A stretch of 64,000 nt of DNA from Candidatus Kerfeldbacteria bacterium (lineage in GTDB: Bacteria > Patescibacteriota > Patescibacteriia > SBBC01 > CAIJZX01): contig JACPSJ010000001.1 in NCBI GenBank assembly GCA_016193315.1, positions 535,478 to 599,477 of the forward strand, read 5' to 3'. Positions 22,908 to 60,523 of the stretch are shown here, in pieces. A model generated the notes under the pieces. It did not search any database, was not told where the DNA came from, and was given only the letters and a program-made list of their open reading frames with translations. Within the stretch, counting starts at the first letter, position 1. Every line of letters starts with the position of its first letter. The position numbers and the translations under genes were made by a program.

Positions 22908-24518
22908 TCACGATTCCCAACGGTGGTTGCGAAAGGCCCAGTTGATAACGGCCGCCGCATCGACAAAGCGCTGACGGGAAGAAGCTGAACCCATGATCGC
23001 GACCACCACCTGGCTGCCAGTTGTTCGGTCGGCCGTCCGGATGACATAGGTGTACTTGGCCTCGTCGAGGTAACCGGTCTTGCCGCCGGTAAAAATGAGC
23101 TGACGGTCGACCAGCCCACGGCCGAGCAACCAGTCGGTAGTCGGAATGGTGTGACTAAGGCCGGTGTTCAAAGTTCGGAAGTGATACACTCGGCGGGTGG
23201 TGACATAGCGAATGGGCTCATATTCGTGAAAAACCTGGGCCGCCAAGCGGGCTACTTCCTCGGCGGTTGAGACATTCCCCGGATCAAGGCCAGTGACATC
23301 CACGAACCGGGTTAAGCTTAGACCCCAGGCTTGAGCCTTGTTATTCATCCGCTCGATGAACTGCTCGCGGCTGAGACCAGTGCTGCGCGCCAAAGCGGTG
23401 GCCGCGTTGTTGGCCGAACCAACGAGCATGGCGTAGAACAGATCGCGCAGCTGCATCGTTTCACCGGCGGAAACGCGCAGGTAGCCAAAGGGCGTATCGT
23501 CGGTCGCCTGATACGTAAACGTGGTCCGGAGAGATGGCTTGAGGTCAAGAAACACCGCCGCGGTCATCAGCTTGGTAATACTGGCGATTGGGACTTGATC
23601 GGCGGTCCGATGCCCAGCCAGGAGTTGGCCAGAGATCTGGTCAAAAACTGCGAACGGTCGCGCGGCGATGCTTGGAAATGGCAAGCCGTTATTACCCACG
23701 ACCTTCAGTGGCGGCATGACATCTGCTTTCGACCGGACCGAACTCGTCACCGCGCCGAGGACCTGGGCCGCTCGTGGCGGCCCCACATTCACTCGCGTCA
23801 CCCCCACGTTACTGGTGCCGAGTGCGGCGTAGGCGGACCATGAGAGATCGATAATCCGACCGACCGGTTGACCCCAGCGGGACACGACAGTCACGTCAGC
23901 GGTCCGTCCAGTTTCCAGGCTGCGGACCCGAACCACCGTCCCCAGCGGCCAATCGTTTGAGGCCGCGTGGAATCGCGGGTAACGGCTTGAACAAGCCAGT
24001 CGGCAGTACCAACTGGCCAGACCCTCCTGTTGCTGTCGATCTTCAAGGATGACGTAGAGACCACGAAGTACACGTGTCGTCGCTTGACCAAAGCGGTGGT
24101 CGCGATCGAGGCTGGTGGGGAGCGCGAACCACTGCTGCTGGTCAAGATCGTACACCCAGACTTGACGGATCCAGTAGCTGCTCCCAAACGGTATAGCCAC
24201 GGCCAGTGGTCGCGGCTGGTCGGCTGTGAAGTGCTCGACGCCGTGAATCGACAAAGAATAAACGGCTCCGAGCTGGGCTCGATGATCGGGCAACGACGGC
24301 AGTGGCCCTCTAAAGCGCGCCCAGGTGACATCGGCTGGCCGCGGCAACGTATTGGGGAAGATCCCGGCCCGCGCCCCGTTAGGCAAGGCCAACGTCTTAC
24401 CCCAGCGGATGAGCGACGGATCGAAATGTAGGGTTGTTGACTCGGCGGCCTCGACAACGCCACCAAAGCCGAGCAGCCAAACGCTTGTCAGGGTCAGGCC
24501 GATAAGGTATAGTGGCAA
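22908..24518 (-). CDS. Bitopic cell-wall protein: RlpA-like DPBB domain plus D-alanyl-D-alanine carboxypeptidase (peptidase S11) domain
   Basis: DPBB region ASWYCRL..FHAASNDWPLGTVVRVRSLETGRTADVTVVSRWGQPVGRIIDLSWSAYAALG; PBP motifs SITK (SxxK), SAN (SxN) and KTGY (KTG). Start proposed at TTG at 24518, with AGGAAA 5 nt upstream, giving the TM segment LPLYLIGLTLTSVWLLGFGGVV. The track ORF runs to 25088 only because it reads through tRNA-Gly and the repeats on the opposite strand. Confidence 0.65.
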   Translation of the reverse strand: MPLYLIGLTLTSVWLLGFGGVVEAAESTTLHFDPSLIRWGKTLALPNGARAGIFPNTLPRPADVTWARFRGPLPSLPDHRAQLGAVYSLSIHGVEHFTADQPRPLAVAIPFGSSYWIRQVWVYDLDQQQWFALPTSLDRDHRFGQATTRVLRGLYVILEDRQQQEGLASWYCRLACSSRYPRFHAASNDWPLGTVVRVRSLETGRTADVTVVSRWGQPVGRIIDLSWSAYAALGTSNVGVTRVNVGPPRAAQVLGAVTSSVRSKADVMPPLKVVGNNGLPFPSIAARPFAVFDQISGQLLAGHRTADQVPIASITKLMTAAVFLDLKPSLRTTFTYQATDDTPFGYLRVSAGETMQLRDLFYAMLVGSANNAATALARSTGLSREQFIERMNNKAQAWGLSLTRFVDVTGLDPGNVSTAEEVARLAAQVFHEYEPIRYVTTRRVYHFRTLNTGLSHTIPTTDWLLGRGLVDRQLIFTGGKTGYLDEAKYTYVIRTADRTTGSQVVVAIMGSASSRQRFVDAAAVINWAFRNHRWES

Positions 24519-24536
24519 GCGTTTCCTGATCAGCGG

Positions 24537-24610
24537 GCGGGTATGGTTTAGTGGTAAAACGTGACCTTCCCAAGGTCGAGTCGGGGGTTCGATTCCCCCT
24601 ACCCGCTCCA
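24537..24610 (+). tRNA. tRNA-Gly (anticodon CCC), CCA encoded
   Basis: Acceptor GCGGGTA/TACCCGC, anticodon loop TTCCCAA, T-arm GGGGG-TTCGATT-CCCCC, 3' TCCA. Confidence 0.8.
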
Positions 24611-24644
24611 AATCATTCCCTTCGCCCAGATGAAAAATTGTGGC

Positions 24645-25090
24645 CAACGTTTGTATACTCTGCTTTAAGAATCGAAGGGCAGGAGCGATCCCGCCGAATG
24701 GCGGGAGAGCGTCCGCCGAGCCGCCAGTGGCGGGTCGGCGCTGCCCAGGGACGATTCCCCCTACCCGCTCTGACAAAAACGCGCGAGTCTGATCGTCTGA
24801 AGCCGACGGTGTTTGTATTCGCTGCATAAGGAATCGAACGGGCCGAGCACTTCTGCCAGCGGCCGGAGAGCGCCGACCCAGGCCCGAGTCCCGCCTCGAG
24901 CGGGACGAGTGGTCGATTCCCCCTACCAGCTCCAAAGAGTTTTCACCGGCACGATGAAATGTCAAAACCATTTTTTGAATACCCGACGTTAGGAATCGAA
25001 CCGGGTGAACCCAAAGTGCCTGCCCAAGTGGTAGAGAATGCCGGCTGGTATTCGTCAGTAGTGGCTTGAACTTTGTTTTCGCGCTCATGG
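24645..25090 (+). repeat. Three tandem ~160-nt units, each starting TAAG(G)AATCGAAnGGG and (units 1-2) ending CGATTCCCCCTACCnGCTC (tRNA-Gly 3'-end-like)
   Basis: Direct comparison of 24645-24780, 24822-24934 and 24971-25090. Unit 2 ends TACCAGCTCCA. Unit 3 carries GGAATCGAACCGGG..GAACCCAAAGTGCCTGCC, which resembles the tmRNA 5' region. No protein-coding potential. Confidence 0.5.
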
Positions 25091-25111
25091 GCGTGTTTCA
25101 AGATACCACGC

Positions 25112-25939
25112 TCAGCGGTCCTTGACAAGGAGCGGCCCCACGAACTGGTCGATGCGTCGCCCGAGTTCGGCTCGGAGTCCGGGGTCGCGAACCGGACGGT
25201 GAGTACTGGCCGACAAGACCACCAGCTGGTGTGGCGAGTTAGTCATCCGCTCAGACAGCACGGTCGCGCTCTGGGTAGCTACGTACGGGTCACCTTTGGT
25301 GCTCACGATCAAGGTTGGCACACGAAGCCGTGGTAGGGCCGGCCAGACAAAGGTGGCGATGAACCACTCTGTTTCCAGCAGTCCACCAATTGGCCAGCGG
25401 TCGAGCGACCCAATCTCCCGCATCCGGCGCCGATCCTCTGTGGTCAGGTTTGGTTTGTGATAGTACGGGGTAAACAGCCGGAGCCACCGTAAGCCAAGCC
25501 GTCGGAACCAAACCGCGCCGCGATAGCGGACTGGCGTATTCACCGTCACCACAGCCAACAGCTGTGCTGGAGCGTGGATGGCGTAGTCAATCGCGAGTGA
25601 GCCGCCAAACGAGAAACCCAGCAGCACAATCTGACGGCAACGCTGTTTCAGTAGTCGGGCCGCGGCAAAGACCGAGGCCCGCCAATCGGCGCTGTCGGTA
25701 CCGGCCAAGGTAGTGGGACCGCGTCCATGCCCAGCCACGGTCAAGCCGAGTATACTGTACCCTCGAGCTCGAAGATCGTGGGCCAGTTCACGGTAATCGC
25801 CGATGCTACCGCCGTAGCCGTGGATAATGAGAATCCCGACCGGTCCGGCCGGGAGCCAGAACGGTCGCGCCCCAGCAGACAGCCCGGTTGACTGACGGGC
25901 GATCCATGCGCTAATCTTGTCGCTGGCAGCCGTGTTCAT
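25112..25939 (-). CDS. Alpha/beta hydrolase fold protein
   Basis: 275 aa; HGYGGS oxyanion region and the GFSFGG (GxSxG) nucleophile elbow. Confidence 0.7.
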   Translation of the reverse strand: MNTAASDKISAWIARQSTGLSAGARPFWLPAGPVGILIIHGYGGSIGDYRELAHDLRARGYSILGLTVAGHGRGPTTLAGTDSADWRASVFAAARLLKQRCRQIVLLGFSFGGSLAIDYAIHAPAQLLAVVTVNTPVRYRGAVWFRRLGLRWLRLFTPYYHKPNLTTEDRRRMREIGSLDRWPIGGLLETEWFIATFVWPALPRLRVPTLIVSTKGDPYVATQSATVLSERMTNSPHQLVVLSASTHRPVRDPGLRAELGRRIDQFVGPLLVKDR

Positions 25940-26086
25940 CGCCGTTGAAGCTTCCAGCCAACCTCAGTTGTCAGCTCCACAAGGTCCTCACCATGCTAGT
26001 CCACCGCCGTCAGCCAAACGCATTGCACGTTCGTCGACTGGCCACCCACCTTTAACCAAAACAAATACATTGGTAGACCCGCCCGC

Positions 26087-26273
26087 CCTGGCCTGAGCCC
26101 GCGTAGCTCAGTTGGTAGACCTGCCCGCCAAAGACCGAGCCCATGTAGCTCAACTGGTAGAGCAATCCCTTCGTAAGGGAAAGGTTGTCGGTTCGATTCC
26201 GACCATGGGCTTTTGGCGAGGGCAGGCGGGGCAATGCTTTCGTAAAGCAGAGGTCGTCGGTTCGATCCCGACC
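26087..26273 (+). other. Split tRNA-Thr(CGT)-like gene: 5' half (26087-26110) and 3' half (26221-26273) flank an inserted intact tRNA-Thr
   Basis: 5' half GCCCGCG-TAGCTCAGTTGGTAGAC. 3' half ATGCT-TTCGTAA-AGCAG / GTCGG-TTCGATC-CCGAC / CGCGGGC-T-CCA, whose acceptor strand is exactly complementary to the 5' half. The intervening 110 nt contain inverted repeats (CCTGCCCGCCAAA / TTTGGCGAGGGCAGG) around a complete tRNA-Thr. Confidence 0.45.
26129..26201 (+). tRNA. tRNA-Thr (anticodon CGT), no encoded CCA
   Basis: Acceptor GCCCATG/CATGGGC, D-arm GCTC-AACTGGTA-GAGC, anticodon loop TTCGTAA with CGT at 26162-26164, T-arm GTCGG-TTCGATT-CCGAC. Confidence 0.75.
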
Positions 26274-26327
26274 GCGGGCTCCAGACGAGAGCAGGCAGGA
26301 AGCAAGCCCAGCGGGTCATCAGTCGTT

Positions 26328-27299
26328 TCAAGAGTTCGTCACTCGTCCCGCCCCCCGGTCCCATTGTAAACCCCGCACCCAGACGAACACTCGACGCTCC
26401 TGGAGATAACGTGTAATTGCGGCATCGACTGACGGGGCGGCAATAAAAATCTGCGCCACCCGGACTTCTCGTTCGCCTTCGACTTGACGTTCTCCCAAAA
26501 CGCTGATGATATGCCAGCCAAATTTCGTATGGATCAGATCGCTGGTCTGGCCGACCGGCAAACTCCAGGCCGCATCGTCGATGGCTTCATCCTGCTCGCC
26601 ACGTTTGATAAAGCCGAGGTCACCCCCATTCGGCGCATAGGCGTCCTCGCTATAGGTTTTGGCCAGCTCGGAGAATGACTGCTGACCGGCTTGGACCAGG
26701 GCGAACACGCGTTCCGCTTGGCGGCGTGCGGTCTGATTGAGGCGGTCGTCGAATGACAGTTGCTGACGCAGCTTGTCGCGGGCCACGGCCAGCCGAACGA
26801 CGTGGGCTTTGTACTGGGCCAGCGTCCATCCGTATAGCTTGGCGATAGTCCGGGTGGTGAGTGCCCGATCGCCGGCTTGCAGGATTTGGGCGGTGAAAGC
26901 TTGGTCAACGTCAGAGGTCGAAACTGTTACCCCCCAGCGCTCGAGCAGGGCCAAGGTAGCGGCCTGACGGACGAGCTTATCCAGTGCCGCCTGATCGACG
27001 CGAGCCGCGCCGACACCCGCGGCGCCGTCGGTCGAGCTGGTCGGCACAGCTTGTCGGTAGTGCTCAATCGCCTGACGTTCTTCGAGGAAGGTGTGGATCG
27101 GGATAACCCGCCAGCCGACGGTGGCCGCTGGGAGGGGGGTGTACCGTGTCACGCCAATGGCCAGCTGATCATGCCAGTCAAGACCGTAGACACCCGTGGC
27201 CACCCCGGCCACCCCCAGCAGAATCACCACCACCAGACTGACCAGCACTCGACGCCAACGGTGGATCATGGCGGCTCTCATTTGATCGAGGAAGGTCAT
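26328..27299 (-). CDS. Membrane-anchored PpiC-type (parvulin) peptidyl-prolyl isomerase, PrsA/SurA-like
   Basis: 323 aa; N-terminal TM; C-terminal parvulin motifs (NGGDLGFIKRGE..., FGWHII). Confidence 0.65.
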   Translation of the reverse strand: MTFLDQMRAAMIHRWRRVLVSLVVVILLGVAGVATGVYGLDWHDQLAIGVTRYTPLPAATVGWRVIPIHTFLEERQAIEHYRQAVPTSSTDGAAGVGAARVDQAALDKLVRQAATLALLERWGVTVSTSDVDQAFTAQILQAGDRALTTRTIAKLYGWTLAQYKAHVVRLAVARDKLRQQLSFDDRLNQTARRQAERVFALVQAGQQSFSELAKTYSEDAYAPNGGDLGFIKRGEQDEAIDDAAWSLPVGQTSDLIHTKFGWHIISVLGERQVEGEREVRVAQIFIAAPSVDAAITRYLQERRVFVWVRGLQWDRGAGRVTNS

Positions 27300-27308
27300 G
27301 GATGTATT

Positions 27309-27752
27309 TTACGTTGAAGATGAAGAATTGGGAACGCTTGGCGACCGACCGAAGAAATACTGCCACCACAGCCTGGCGGTCGACACCGGCGAGCGGCTGC
27401 CCCTGGGGGTCGTCGGCAAGCCATTGGTCTTCTCAGCATCCACGTTAACCGTCCCCGGCGGAACGACAATCACCCGCTCACCAGACTTTCGTAAACCGAG
27501 CTTCAGCCGAGCCTCCCGCTCTTGGTACGTTTGGCTCCGAAGATAGGTGATCAGTTCCGCCAGCTGTTCTTGCCGACGCTCTTCGTCGGTCACTTGCTGG
27601 CGCAAGCGTTGGACTTGCTGTCGGACCTGATCAGAACGCGCCGATTCGCGAATGATCGCCACCGTGAAGAGCACCACCAGGCTGCCGCTGACCACGACCA
27701 TCCACCAACTGAGCGTCGGTCGGTCCGGAGGTTGCCACCGCGAGCGACGCAT
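27309..27752 (-). CDS. FtsB/DivIC-like septum formation initiator (TM plus coiled coil)
   Basis: 147 aa; single TM (WWMVVVSGSLVVLFTVAII) followed by a coiled coil (QVRQQVQRLRQQVTDEERRQEQLAELI). Confidence 0.5.
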   Translation of the reverse strand: MRRSRWQPPDRPTLSWWMVVVSGSLVVLFTVAIIRESARSDQVRQQVQRLRQQVTDEERRQEQLAELITYLRSQTYQEREARLKLGLRKSGERVIVVPPGTVNVDAEKTNGLPTTPRGSRSPVSTARLWWQYFFGRSPSVPNSSSST

Positions 27753-43212: not shown

Positions 43213-43261
43213 GACCGTCTACGTACCTCTCGACCAGACCACCGGTAAGCCGAATTCTGTT

Positions 43262-43331
43262 CCCGCACCTTTCTGAGCTCAACACCTGATGGTGATGGTT
43301 GACGTGTGGCCGTTGCTCAGAAAGGTGCGGG
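43262..43331. repeat. Perfect 17-bp inverted repeat CCCGCACCTTTCTGAGC ... GCTCAGAAAGGTGCGGG with 36-nt structured loop
   Basis: Seen directly, between the PGT gene start and the 3' end of rnpB; may act as the rnpB terminator or a protein-binding site. Confidence 0.5.
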
Positions 43332-43369
43332 AGATGATCATCTCTCTTGGAGTGCCATTGCTGACACCC

Positions 43370-43900
43370 TCTAGCGATCTACCCGTCCCGCTGTCAGGCG
43401 GAACCTATACGATCTTGCACCAGAGAGGGTTTGCCCGCCGTCCGGCTCACGCCGGACCGCCGTGCGCTCTGACCGTCACCGCCTTTCGGCGGGATCCCGC
43501 GGTATGCGGGACACGATTTCACCCTTACTCTTTCCACGCCGGCGAAGCCGCGCTGCGATCCCCCGGTTCATTTATGAACCAGAAGACTGGCCAGTGTCGA
43601 CTCGCGAGAAGTGCCTGAATGAATCAAGCGATGGCATGGAAGGAGCGGTATGTTTCTGTTGCACTCTTCGTCCCGCTATATAGCGGGATCCCTGGGCTTG
43701 GCCCCGACGCCCCGCTCACCGGGGGTCGGGATTACTCCCGGTCGCTGTTAGCGACTCTCTGCTTATCCCGACGCGCTTGCGCGGTCGGCATGGTGTTCGG
43801 ACTTTCCTCCCCGATCGCGCTGACGCGCACCGGAGCGATCATCTAGTGGTCTGGAAAGAGGCTCAAACAGCGTACTATAATCGAGGCCCGCTGTCAACCT
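43370..43900 (-). ncRNA. rnpB: RNase P RNA (bacterial type A), ends approximate
   Basis: Minus-strand sequence contains the P4 motif GGGGAGGAAAGTCCG, then GAGTGCAACAGAAACATACCGC, AAGGGTGAAATCGTG and GGTCAGAGCGCACGG, in the order of E. coli M1 RNA; the 5'/3' ends carry a complementary GCGATC. The overlapping plus-strand ORFs are spurious. Confidence 0.7.
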
Positions 43901-60390: not shown

Positions 60391-60450
60391 ATCCCCCTCG
60401 AGAAGAAAGAACGGGCAGGTCGTTTCGACACGAGCCTGCCCGTCATGCTC

Positions 60451-60523
60451 GGGGTACGACGGGGCTCGAACCCGTAACCTCCGGAACCACAGTCCAGCGC
60501 TCTGCCAGTTGAGCTACGTACCC
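60451..60523 (-). tRNA. tRNA-His (anticodon GTG), no encoded CCA
   Basis: Minus-strand cloverleaf: acceptor GGGTACG/CGTACCC, D-arm GCTC-AACTGGCA-GAGC, anticodon loop CTGTGGT, T-arm ACGGG-TTCGAGC-CCCGT. Confidence 0.75.

Follow-up and report, generated by a model that had tools for sequence, protein, structure and literature searches.

Structure of the nested tRNA locus

The window examined here is a 64,000-nt stretch of a Candidatus Kerfeldbacteria bacterium (contig JACPSJ010000001.1), and positions are counted from its first letter. On its + strand lies a tRNA-Thr(CGT) gene that is divided after position 23, within the 3' strand of the D stem, the break falling between G22-A23 and G24-C25. 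The outer halves occupy 26097-26119 and 26231-26283, and between them is a 111-nt insert (26120-26230) composed of a 19-nt leader starting CCTGCCCGCC (the LE motif), a complete second tRNA-Thr(CGT) at 26139-26211, and a 19-nt trailer ending GGCAGGCGGG (the RE motif). A first-pass annotation, made from the sequence alone, had described a second tRNA nested between two tRNA halves, and ARAGORN and Rfam bore this out (26139-26211 within 26097-26283); its coordinates were approximately 10 nt too low throughout, and the 110-nt separation that it gave is actually 111 nt. The features of the locus are as follows.

26070-26077, + strand: TTGGTAGA, best read as a layer-3 remnant; D loop end, to position 23, of the outermost tRNA, abutting an LE-type motif as at 26119/26120
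26078-26096, + strand: leader of the outer unit (L-o), CCCGCCCGCCCTGGCCTGA, with a degenerate LE motif; 13/19 identical to the inner leader
26097-26119, + strand: outer tRNA-Thr(CGT), positions 1-23, GCCCGCG-TAGCTCAGTTGGTAGA; acceptor strand, 5' strand of the D stem, D loop, G22 and A23
26120-26138, + strand: cassette leader (L-i), CCTGCCCGCCAAAGACCGA; LE motif CCTGCCCGCC at 26120-26129, then AAAGACCGA; pairs with the trailer in the predicted fold
26139-26211, + strand: inner complete tRNA-Thr(CGT); acceptor GCCCATG/CATGGGC, discriminator T, no encoded CCA; called by ARAGORN and by Rfam (RF00005, 68.7 bits)
26212-26230, + strand: cassette trailer (T-i), TTTGGCGAGGGCAGGCGGG; TTTGGCGAG, then RE motif GGCAGGCGGG at 26221-26230; present in Logan contigs L001 and L002
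26231-26283, + strand: outer tRNA-Thr(CGT), positions 24-73 and encoded CCA, GCAATGCT...CGCGGGC-T-CCA (full form GCAATGCTTTCGTAAAGCAGAGGTCGTCGGTTCGATCCCGACCGCGGGC-T-CCA)
26284-26301, + strand: trailer of the outer unit (T-o), GACGAGAGCAGGCAGGAA, with a degenerate RE motif; aligns with the inner trailer in a 69-nt tandem repeat
26302-26327, + strand: possible 3' vestige of layer 3, tentative, GCAAGCCCAGCGGG...; begins GCAA like positions 24-27, after an RE-like motif, and ends at the stop codon of the peptidyl-prolyl isomerase (PPIase) gene

The outer 3' part supplies the D-stem GC, an anticodon arm (ATGCT/TTCGTAA/AGCAG), the T arm, and the acceptor strand CGCGGGC. Joined, the halves make a canonical 76-nt tRNA-Thr(CGT) with a 7/7 acceptor stem, a D stem of GCTC/GAGC, and an encoded CCA, in agreement with the earlier statement that they pair perfectly as one acceptor stem. 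The inner tRNA has an anticodon stem of ATCCC/GGGAA, a variable loop of AGGTT, and no encoded CCA; both tRNAs read the codon ACG. Compensatory pairs in the two anticodon arms had been taken to mean that both tRNAs were functional, which holds for the time before insertion but is no proof that both work now. Only the inner tRNA is called as a complete gene by ARAGORN and Rfam, the outer 3' part appearing as a truncated Rfam tRNA match of 23.9 bits. Elsewhere in the window, CCA is encoded in tRNA-Gln and tRNA-Gly, as in the outer tRNA-Thr, and is absent from tRNA-His, as from the inner one.

The insert is bounded by inverted repeats (IRs), as had been noted (CCTGCCCGCCAAA / TTTGGCG-AG-GGCAGG). 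The LE motif and the reverse complement of the RE motif (CCCGCCTGCC) are identical at 8/10 positions, and this pair is kept across loci. Within the window the exact cassette motif occurs at this locus only. A hairpin with nearly the same 10-mers in the opposite order, GACGGGCAGG-15 nt-CCTGCCCGTC followed by a T-rich run, lies at 60405-60445, just 3' of tRNA-His (60451-60523, - strand), and is probably a terminator. A promoter and terminator scan of 25900-26400 found neither.

A repeat search detected a 42-nt unit present twice in tandem at 26070-26153 (79% identical) and a 69-nt unit present twice in tandem at 26162-26299 (78% identical), and these units join exactly at position 23/24. Nested partial duplication had been offered as one explanation of the locus, and an origin in situ from one gene can be framed in these terms, either as two tandem partial duplications (42-nt left, 69-nt right) or as one template-switch repair, with no mobile or foreign DNA. 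The two duplications do meet at 23/24, and leaders and trailers are homologous; however, two independent duplications sharing one exact boundary would be unlikely. This origin is considered further below, where the orthologs and related loci lead us to regard it as very unlikely.

Folded as one RNA, 26097-26283 is predicted to form a double cloverleaf (-82.1 kcal/mol, z = -3.4). In this fold the outer acceptor stem, anticodon arm, and T arm all form, and a leader-trailer helix (CCUGCC-CGCCAA / UUGGCG-AG-GGCAGG) stands at the split D stem with the inner cloverleaf on its tip. The juxtaposition of the two halves in the predicted fold is one point in favor of a reading that we consider unlikely, namely that the insert behaves like an intron in the RNA, with the outer halves afterwards either joined by a ligase, such as one of the RtcB type, or kept together by base pairing as a tRNA in two pieces. 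The cassette could be cut at the base of the leader-trailer helix, or the inner tRNA could be freed by RNase P and RNase Z, and the locus would yield two working tRNA-Thr(CGT) species. However, the same predicted fold contains no bulge-helix-bulge (BHB): the leader helix starts at the 5' junction, and the unpaired GA (5') and CGG(G) (3') share one internal loop, across which the junctions are opposed instead of lying in 3-nt bulges 4 bp apart. A BHB intron was rejected because this motif is absent from the boundaries. Nor is there a group I or group II core. The P3-P9 core of group I introns typically exceeds 200 nt, the insert is 111 nt, and Rfam at E<=1 over 25000-27500 returned only tRNA matches and one spurious match; a group I intron was therefore rejected. 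The context is also bacterial, in which we know of no splicing endonuclease.

Assembly of the locus

The possibility of an assembly error, raised in the first-pass annotation, was checked against Logan assemblies. Proteins adjoining the locus were found with identical sequence on Logan contigs from other sequencing runs. In read sets SRR12113419, SRR12113385, and SRR12113390, the left part of the locus up to 26172 and the right part from 26151/26156 were both recovered at 100% identity. Contigs with the hydrolase gene (L003 and L004) cover the D fragment, the outer 5' part, the leader, and the inner tRNA start, up to 26172; contigs with the PPIase gene (L001 and L002) begin at 26151/26156 and cover the remainder of the inner tRNA together with the trailer and the outer 3' part. 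Both novel junctions thus lie inside independent contigs, and the overlap between left and right contigs is consistent.

A chimera built from the reads of two tRNA-Thr genes, whether an assembly or a binning artefact, would fit the observation that the Logan contigs from three samples all break within the inner tRNA (26151-26172), a branch point in de Bruijn graphs. Such an artefact is extremely improbable, given the 100% identity of both junctions in independent assemblies and the same architecture in dozens of metagenome-assembled genomes (MAGs) that different projects produced with different assemblers, one of them a complete Saccharibacteria chromosome (OZ246402.1, L016). Assembly error can be considered excluded for practical purposes. 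The ends of the contigs at 26151-26172, seen in three or four independent read sets, are an observation in their own right; they suggest that this stretch of approximately 30 nt also occurs in another context in the same communities, either another genome with a related cassette or an allele.

Genomic context and orthologous locus

NCBI lists the PPIase under Candidatus Kerfeldbacteria bacterium, on a contig of 857 kb, of which the window covers 64 kb. The surrounding genes, among them those for a SurA-like PPIase, DivIC, LepA, a D-Ala-D-Ala carboxypeptidase, and a class A RNase P RNA, are bacterial, and the resident tRNA-Thr(CGT) sits between the PPIase and alpha/beta-hydrolase genes, as it does in relatives. 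A synteny search anchored on the adjacent PPIase in GTDB species genomes found no relative; synteny was obtained by homolog search and look-up of the encoding contigs. The nearest available relatives, whose PPIases are 46-54% identical to that of the window, share the gene order MurJ-LepA-bPH-DivIC-PPIase-tRNA-Thr(CGT)-hydrolase-tRNA-Gly(CCC)-DacC-FtsE-FtsX. This comparison with related genomes, which had been proposed as a check, showed a single uninterrupted tRNA-Thr(CGT) at the syntenic site (L008, L005, and L006 as far as its contig extends). The orthologs share the features of the outer copy in the window, namely the anticodon arm ATGCT/AGCAG, the variable loop AGGTC, the T stem, and the encoded CCA, and their flanks lack CCTGCCCGCC and GGCAGGCGGG.

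The joined outer sequence aligned to the orthologs with no gaps and was identical to L008 over positions 8-53. Its identity was 0.89-0.92 to the orthologs and 0.82 to the inner tRNA, whose best match was a cassette tRNA in a Falkowbacteria MAG (0.86). Because the outer copy is ortholog-like and the inner copy is divergent, the outer halves are taken as the resident gene and the inner unit as the newcomer. These data agree with the other explanation offered in the first-pass annotation, in which an insertion element encoding a tRNA interrupts a tRNA gene. They disfavor nested partial duplication in situ, because the working copy should then have stayed ortholog-like while the broken one drifted; the opposite was found, with a disrupted copy that is ortholog-like and a functional inner copy that is divergent and CCA-less. 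The uninterrupted orthologs also offer no LE or RE sequence from which the flanks could have been copied. An ordinary tandem-duplication pseudogene was rejected on the 0.89-0.92 identity of the disrupted copy to the orthologs and on the conservation of the ends across phylum-level lineages.

Two other features of the neighborhood were noted. A mechanically called open reading frame at 22908-25088 (- strand, 726 aa, DacC-like) crosses tRNA-Gly(CCC) at 24537-24610 (+ strand); its real start is probably downstream of the tRNA-Gly, since the orthologs are 540-583 aa with the tRNA upstream of them. The class A RNase P RNA at 43230-43854 (- strand) is 625 nt against a 367-position model, with inserts of approximately 36, 42, 98, 47, and 56 nt, and the LE/RE motif was not seen in these helix expansions.

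Recurrence of nested tRNA cassettes

We scanned 185,579 GTDB species genomes for two tRNA D-arm 5' parts too close together for tandem genes (TAGCTCARYTGGTAGA-N18-47-TAGCTCARYTGGTAGAGC). The scan gave at least 117 loci, and the counts for the family reported here are among the matches listed. Approximately 30-40 of these were IR-flanked nests with the architecture of the window, mostly in MAGs of the Candidate Phyla Radiation (CPR/Patescibacteria). A large subset had the exact junction ...GGTAGA|CCTGCCCGCC, with a complete tRNA 9-12 nt further on, and many were plain partial duplications without the motif, in various phyla including non-CPR genomes. Nests were present in Moraniibacteriota, Parcubacteria, Doudnabacteria, Kerfeldbacteria, Falkowbacteria, Taylorbacteria, Kuenenbacteria, and Saccharibacteria, and the few nest records labelled as outside the CPR have CPR-type synteny too. 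The cassette family is widespread in CPR/Patescibacteria and is found inside tRNA genes with the same anticodon.

The layout of the family consists of a 5' fragment, a CCYGCCYGCC leader, a complete tRNA of the same anticodon, a trailer ending in GGCRGGCRGG, and a 3' fragment that continues from the next position. The window fits this layout in every respect, as do L013, L033, L041, L072, L095, L119, and others. The common ends are CCYGCCYGCC/GGCRGGCRGG: the CCTGCCCGCC 10-mer directly follows ...GGTAGA in more than 20 CPR loci, and the GGCAGGCGGG 10-mer directly precedes the resumed outer tRNA in more than 15. Directly after GGCAGGCGGG, the interrupted tRNA continues with its following nucleotide, none being duplicated or lost. 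Many loci have a 3' fragment that is the 7/7 complement of the 5' acceptor strand, although the acceptor sequences themselves vary by locus, and virtual splicing gave a canonical tRNA with the inner anticodon in 11/21 strict-motif loci. In every locus listed the anticodon is common to the inner and outer tRNA (Thr CGT/TGT/GGT, Val TAC/CAC, Ala CGC, Lys CTT). All motif-flanked tRNAs were nested and none was free-standing (278 ARAGORN tRNAs, all loci listed).

Insertion sites were 23/24 (most loci), 37/38, and 35/36. The ends at 23/24 and 37/38 are CCTGCCCGCC...GGCAGGCGGG, and those at 35/36 are the exact inverse pair, CCCGCCTGCC...GGCGGGCAGG, in 6/6 cases. The near-invariant main motif across classes shows strong constraint or recent exchange, and its recurrence with the same 10-nt ends and insertion sites across different CPR classes is a further point against an origin of each nest in situ. 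The latter is favored by the nearly identical inner and outer copies of L020, by the layer-3 3' part and trailer of L057, which nearly equal those of the inner unit, and by the frequency of motif-free partial tRNA duplications in non-CPR genomes.

Other IR families also enclose nests: AACCCCCACACCAAAT.../...ATTTGGTGTTGGGGGGT in L012 and L019; GTCCCG.../...CGGGAT in L016 (the complete Saccharibacteria chromosome), L022, and L078; CCCCGCACC/GGTGCGGGG in L086; and TCCAGCACCATTCC/GGAATGGTGCTGGA in L041. The existence of several unrelated IR families suggests that the hairpin structure matters rather than the specific sequence. L012 and L019, from two Doudnabacteria MAGs, use the AACCCC... family at 37/38 and are nested reciprocally; L012 has a GCGGT-type tRNA-Thr(CGT) inside an ATGCT-type one, and L019 has the ATGCT type inside the GCGGT type, inside a third.

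It is common for a nest to have two or three layers (L072, L057, L019, and L041), the older of which are degraded. The immediate outer copies number approximately 21; about 10 of them are intact and 5 truncated, and a further 6 have additional small hairpins from the same family. A 23-nt module, TCCGCCNNNGGCGGATAAACTCC, stands in place of the anticodon nucleotides in the outer tRNA-Thr copies of L017, L057, L062, and L072, which belong to different CPR lineages; it recurs too often for random decay. A hairpin that has the cassette-end sequence but no cargo lies in the T loop of the outer copy of L072 (CTTGCCTGCC|GGCAGGCAAG), and other cargo-less hairpins were found in intergenic DNA, with several copies on a few viral contigs. 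On viral contigs L252/L260 (e.g. L252 1610-1728) and L258 (five sites), cargo-less hairpins with cassette ends occur several per contig, and one of them, CCTGCCCGCCAGTGCC-AGGCGATGGCAGGCGGG, equals a type-2 leader and trailer minus the tRNA. These viral hairpins could be terminators or a REP-like (repetitive extragenic palindromic) mobile hairpin family.

No recurrent transposase, integrase, or endonuclease gene was present beside 38 nests; the genes that recurred were those of the FtsE, FtsX, DacC-like, DivIC, and PPIase synteny. When viral sequences were scanned for a phage vector, the inner tRNA 33-mer had no match. The pattern CCTGCCCGCC-N70-100-GGCAGGCGGG returned chance matches in GC-rich viral contigs and cargo-less hairpins but zero cassettes, and the junction 16-mer had 120 viral matches listed, none in a tRNA context, which by rough estimate is about the chance number.

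The scan also returned a pattern of another kind. More than 15 loci from Clostridia and Bacteroidales gut MAGs (L014, L015, L034, L038-L040, L050, L052, L055, L066, and others) have a complete tRNA-Phe(GAA) that is preceded, at a distance of 15-20 nt, by a 5' copy of tRNA-Phe(GAA) truncated at approximately position 40; the 40-nt spacing is constant and the CPR motif is missing. This partial duplication is recurrent too but of another kind, and may be an integration scar.

A probable third layer in the window

The further partial copy of the D loop reported in the first-pass annotation does exist, although at 26070-26077 and not from 26060. The fragment TTGGTAGA is best read as the leftover of an older, third tRNA layer, because it abuts an LE-type leader, CCCGCCCGCC..., in the same way as at 26119/26120, and because the orthologs have no such flanks. 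The CCCGCCCGCC variant of this leader also occurs in L031, and a leader like L-o is absent from the uninterrupted orthologs L005 and L008. After the outer tRNA comes an RE-type trailer, ...AGCAGGCAGG, and then GCAAGCCC.... On the simplest reading, what is now the outer tRNA was once itself a cassette at 23/24 of an older gene, of which 8 nt of the 5' part remain and, tentatively, a short 3' vestige; the similarity of 26302-26327 to a layer-3 3' part is weak. L072 and L057 contain nests of three layers whose junctions are the same. That layer 3 is nearly gone while the outer copy is pristine fits an outer copy that was long the working gene and was interrupted recently, and argues that disrupted layers are not maintained.

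Origin and use of the cassette

Taken together, these data indicate that an IR-flanked tRNA cassette probably disrupted the resident gene and took over its function, and that the outer halves are a recent relic. The inner tRNA-Thr(CGT) is presumed to be the working gene. We infer the following course of events. A cassette would insert cleanly at 23/24, 35/36, or 37/38, and repeated events would build nests like Russian dolls. The entire locus would be transcribed as a single RNA that folds into the double cloverleaf, with the leader-trailer helix presenting the inner tRNA for excision. RNase P would cut at 26139, and RNase Z and the CCA-adding enzyme would finish the CCA-less inner tRNA, which would then decode ACG, the outer pieces being by-products. 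The outer halves, recently inactivated, would be expected to decay as the third layer has. The cargo may always be cognate because, with single-copy tRNA genes, only a cassette that replaces the disrupted gene is tolerated. Alternatively, cognate cargo could result from homologous exchange across the flanking tRNA "exons," which would add one layer per recombination of a nested donor with the working copy of the recipient.

Several observations weigh against this account. The survey of genes beside the nests turned up no insertion enzyme. DDE transposons do not typically insert cleanly without duplicating their target, which argues against DDE transposition, and the absence of an integrase-type shared core argues against tyrosine or serine integrases. 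An empty-site allele of the window species would read GCCCGCG...GGTAGAGCAATGC contiguously beside the PPIase gene; neither it nor a donor copy was found in metagenome and viral scans. The outer 5' 23-mer, used in metagenomes to find the empty site, had at least 120 matches, and all of those listed were uninterrupted tRNAs of other identities. Ten of the approximately 21 immediate outer copies, that of the window included, are perfectly intact. Divergence between hosts is alike for the two copies (inner-inner 0.74-0.86, outer-outer 0.73-0.86), and cassette flanks are conserved as much as the tRNAs or more, up to 0.97 identical between hosts whose cargos are 0.75 identical. Similar divergence with conserved flanks is also compatible with a nest of old age that was inherited vertically and in which both copies are under selection. 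The reciprocal nesting of L012 and L019 means that the labels "resident" and "cassette" are not absolute. Finally, leader-trailer covariation outside the conserved 10-mers is marginal, with duplexes of -6.4 kcal/mol for cognate and -5.1 kcal/mol for non-cognate pairs (p = 0.057).

Some of these observations favor the use of the insert as an intron-like element. The outer copy in the window is flawless with its CCA encoded; the 10 intact copies elsewhere keep 7/7 acceptor pairing although their acceptor sequences differ; flank conservation is as strong as that of the tRNAs; and the inner-inner and outer-outer divergences are similar. Insertions are also exact to the nucleotide at typical tRNA intron sites (37/38, 35/36, and the D arm), and in some outer copies small hairpins of the family that lack cargo cleanly interrupt the anticodon stem, anticodon loop, or T loop, like mini-introns. 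However, those hairpins were seen only in layers already disrupted, and an outer copy would be redundant with the inner one. Older layers decay, 5/21 outer copies are truncated, and in 4 loci the outer anticodon is swapped for the 23-nt module, which together argue that outer copies are dispensable. Removal at the RNA level in CPR, with halves religated or used as a two-piece tRNA, would amount to a protein-dependent, archaeal-style system in which the "intron" is a tRNA; that this occurs, and that the cassettes also form a new self-complementing mobile class homing into cognate tRNA genes, seems to us quite unlikely.

Significance and comparison with known systems

A search of the full-text literature found no description of nested tRNA genes or of the cassette motif, and the nested tRNA cassette is apparently an undescribed, recurrent architecture of the CPR. 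Introns at odd positions and split and permuted tRNA genes are regarded as an archaeal or eukaryotic speciality, and to our knowledge Bacteria have only group I or II introns in the anticodon loop of tRNA genes. In the present case the break lies in the D stem of a bacterial tRNA gene, and the element that causes it holds nothing but another copy of the same tRNA; the design recurs with the same 10-nt ends over many CPR lineages, with as many as three layers one inside another. Should the cassettes be mobile, they would constitute a minimal selfish element, which persists because it supplies a substitute for the essential gene that it destroys, and a route of horizontal tRNA gene turnover where tRNA genes are single-copy. 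Reuse of the outer halves would point to a new bacterial RNA-processing pathway. Standard tRNA finders give the inner gene only, and nests are therefore invisible in annotations; they also break short-read assemblies, the Logan contigs stopping inside the locus.

Archaeal disrupted tRNA genes include those of the Thermoproteales, with multiple non-canonical introns, and the split tRNA genes of Nanoarchaeum and Caldivirga. Like these, the nests have clean breaks in the D arm or anticodon loop (23/24, 35/36, and 37/38), several of which are possible per gene, and a GC-rich junction helix that draws the halves together. Unlike them, the nests are bacterial and have no BHB, the insert is a complete cognate tRNA, the halves are adjacent, and the outer copies often decay.

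Islands and prophages integrate into tRNA genes by integrase attP/attB logic and bring a replacement for the displaced segment. The cassette resembles them in that the target is a tRNA gene, the incoming DNA restores function, and displaced relics can pile up. It differs in having no integrase, island, or core, in supplying a whole tRNA and not a 3' segment, and in leaving fragments that are symmetric on both sides. An integrase att site or island was rejected for the window locus, in which the insert holds a tRNA only, the neighbors are housekeeping genes, and no sequence is common to both junctions.

Palindromic mini-elements comprise the Rickettsia palindromic elements, REP sequences and bacterial interspersed mosaic elements (BIMEs), miniature inverted-repeat transposable elements (MITEs), and the GC clusters of yeast mitochondria. 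Common to these and the cassettes are short, GC-rich, imperfect IRs, a non-autonomous nature, solo copies without cargo, and occurrence also inside RNA genes. The mini-elements carry no gene, whereas the cassette hairpin encloses a tRNA within a cognate tRNA gene, and there is no target-site duplication here. A DDE MITE was considered separately: terminal inverted repeats are present, but a target-site duplication is absent here and in the other intact nests. As for MITE-like copy number, cargo-less hairpins occur elsewhere in some CPR loci and viral contigs, and cargo-bearing units occur only in cognate tRNA genes.

The intervening sequences of bacterial 23S rRNA are removed by RNase III without religation. 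Both systems have a helix-forming insert in a structural RNA gene, and removal at the RNA level could leave paired fragments; a tRNA in two pieces is not known to function in vivo. The rRNA insert replaces the tip of a hairpin, whereas the cassette splits the D stem.

Group I introns have been described in tRNA genes of Patescibacteria, including at 35/36 (PMC13011429), and nested structures are not mentioned in the sections of that paper, or under the terms, covered by our comparison. As far as those sections go, these introns and the nests share the phylum, the tRNA gene as target, the site 35/36, and their being missed by standard tRNA finders. The cassette of the window differs from them in its 111-nt length, its lack of a ribozyme core, its IR ends, its tRNA cargo, and its site in the D stem. 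The window locus lacks a defining feature of each of these nearest concepts.

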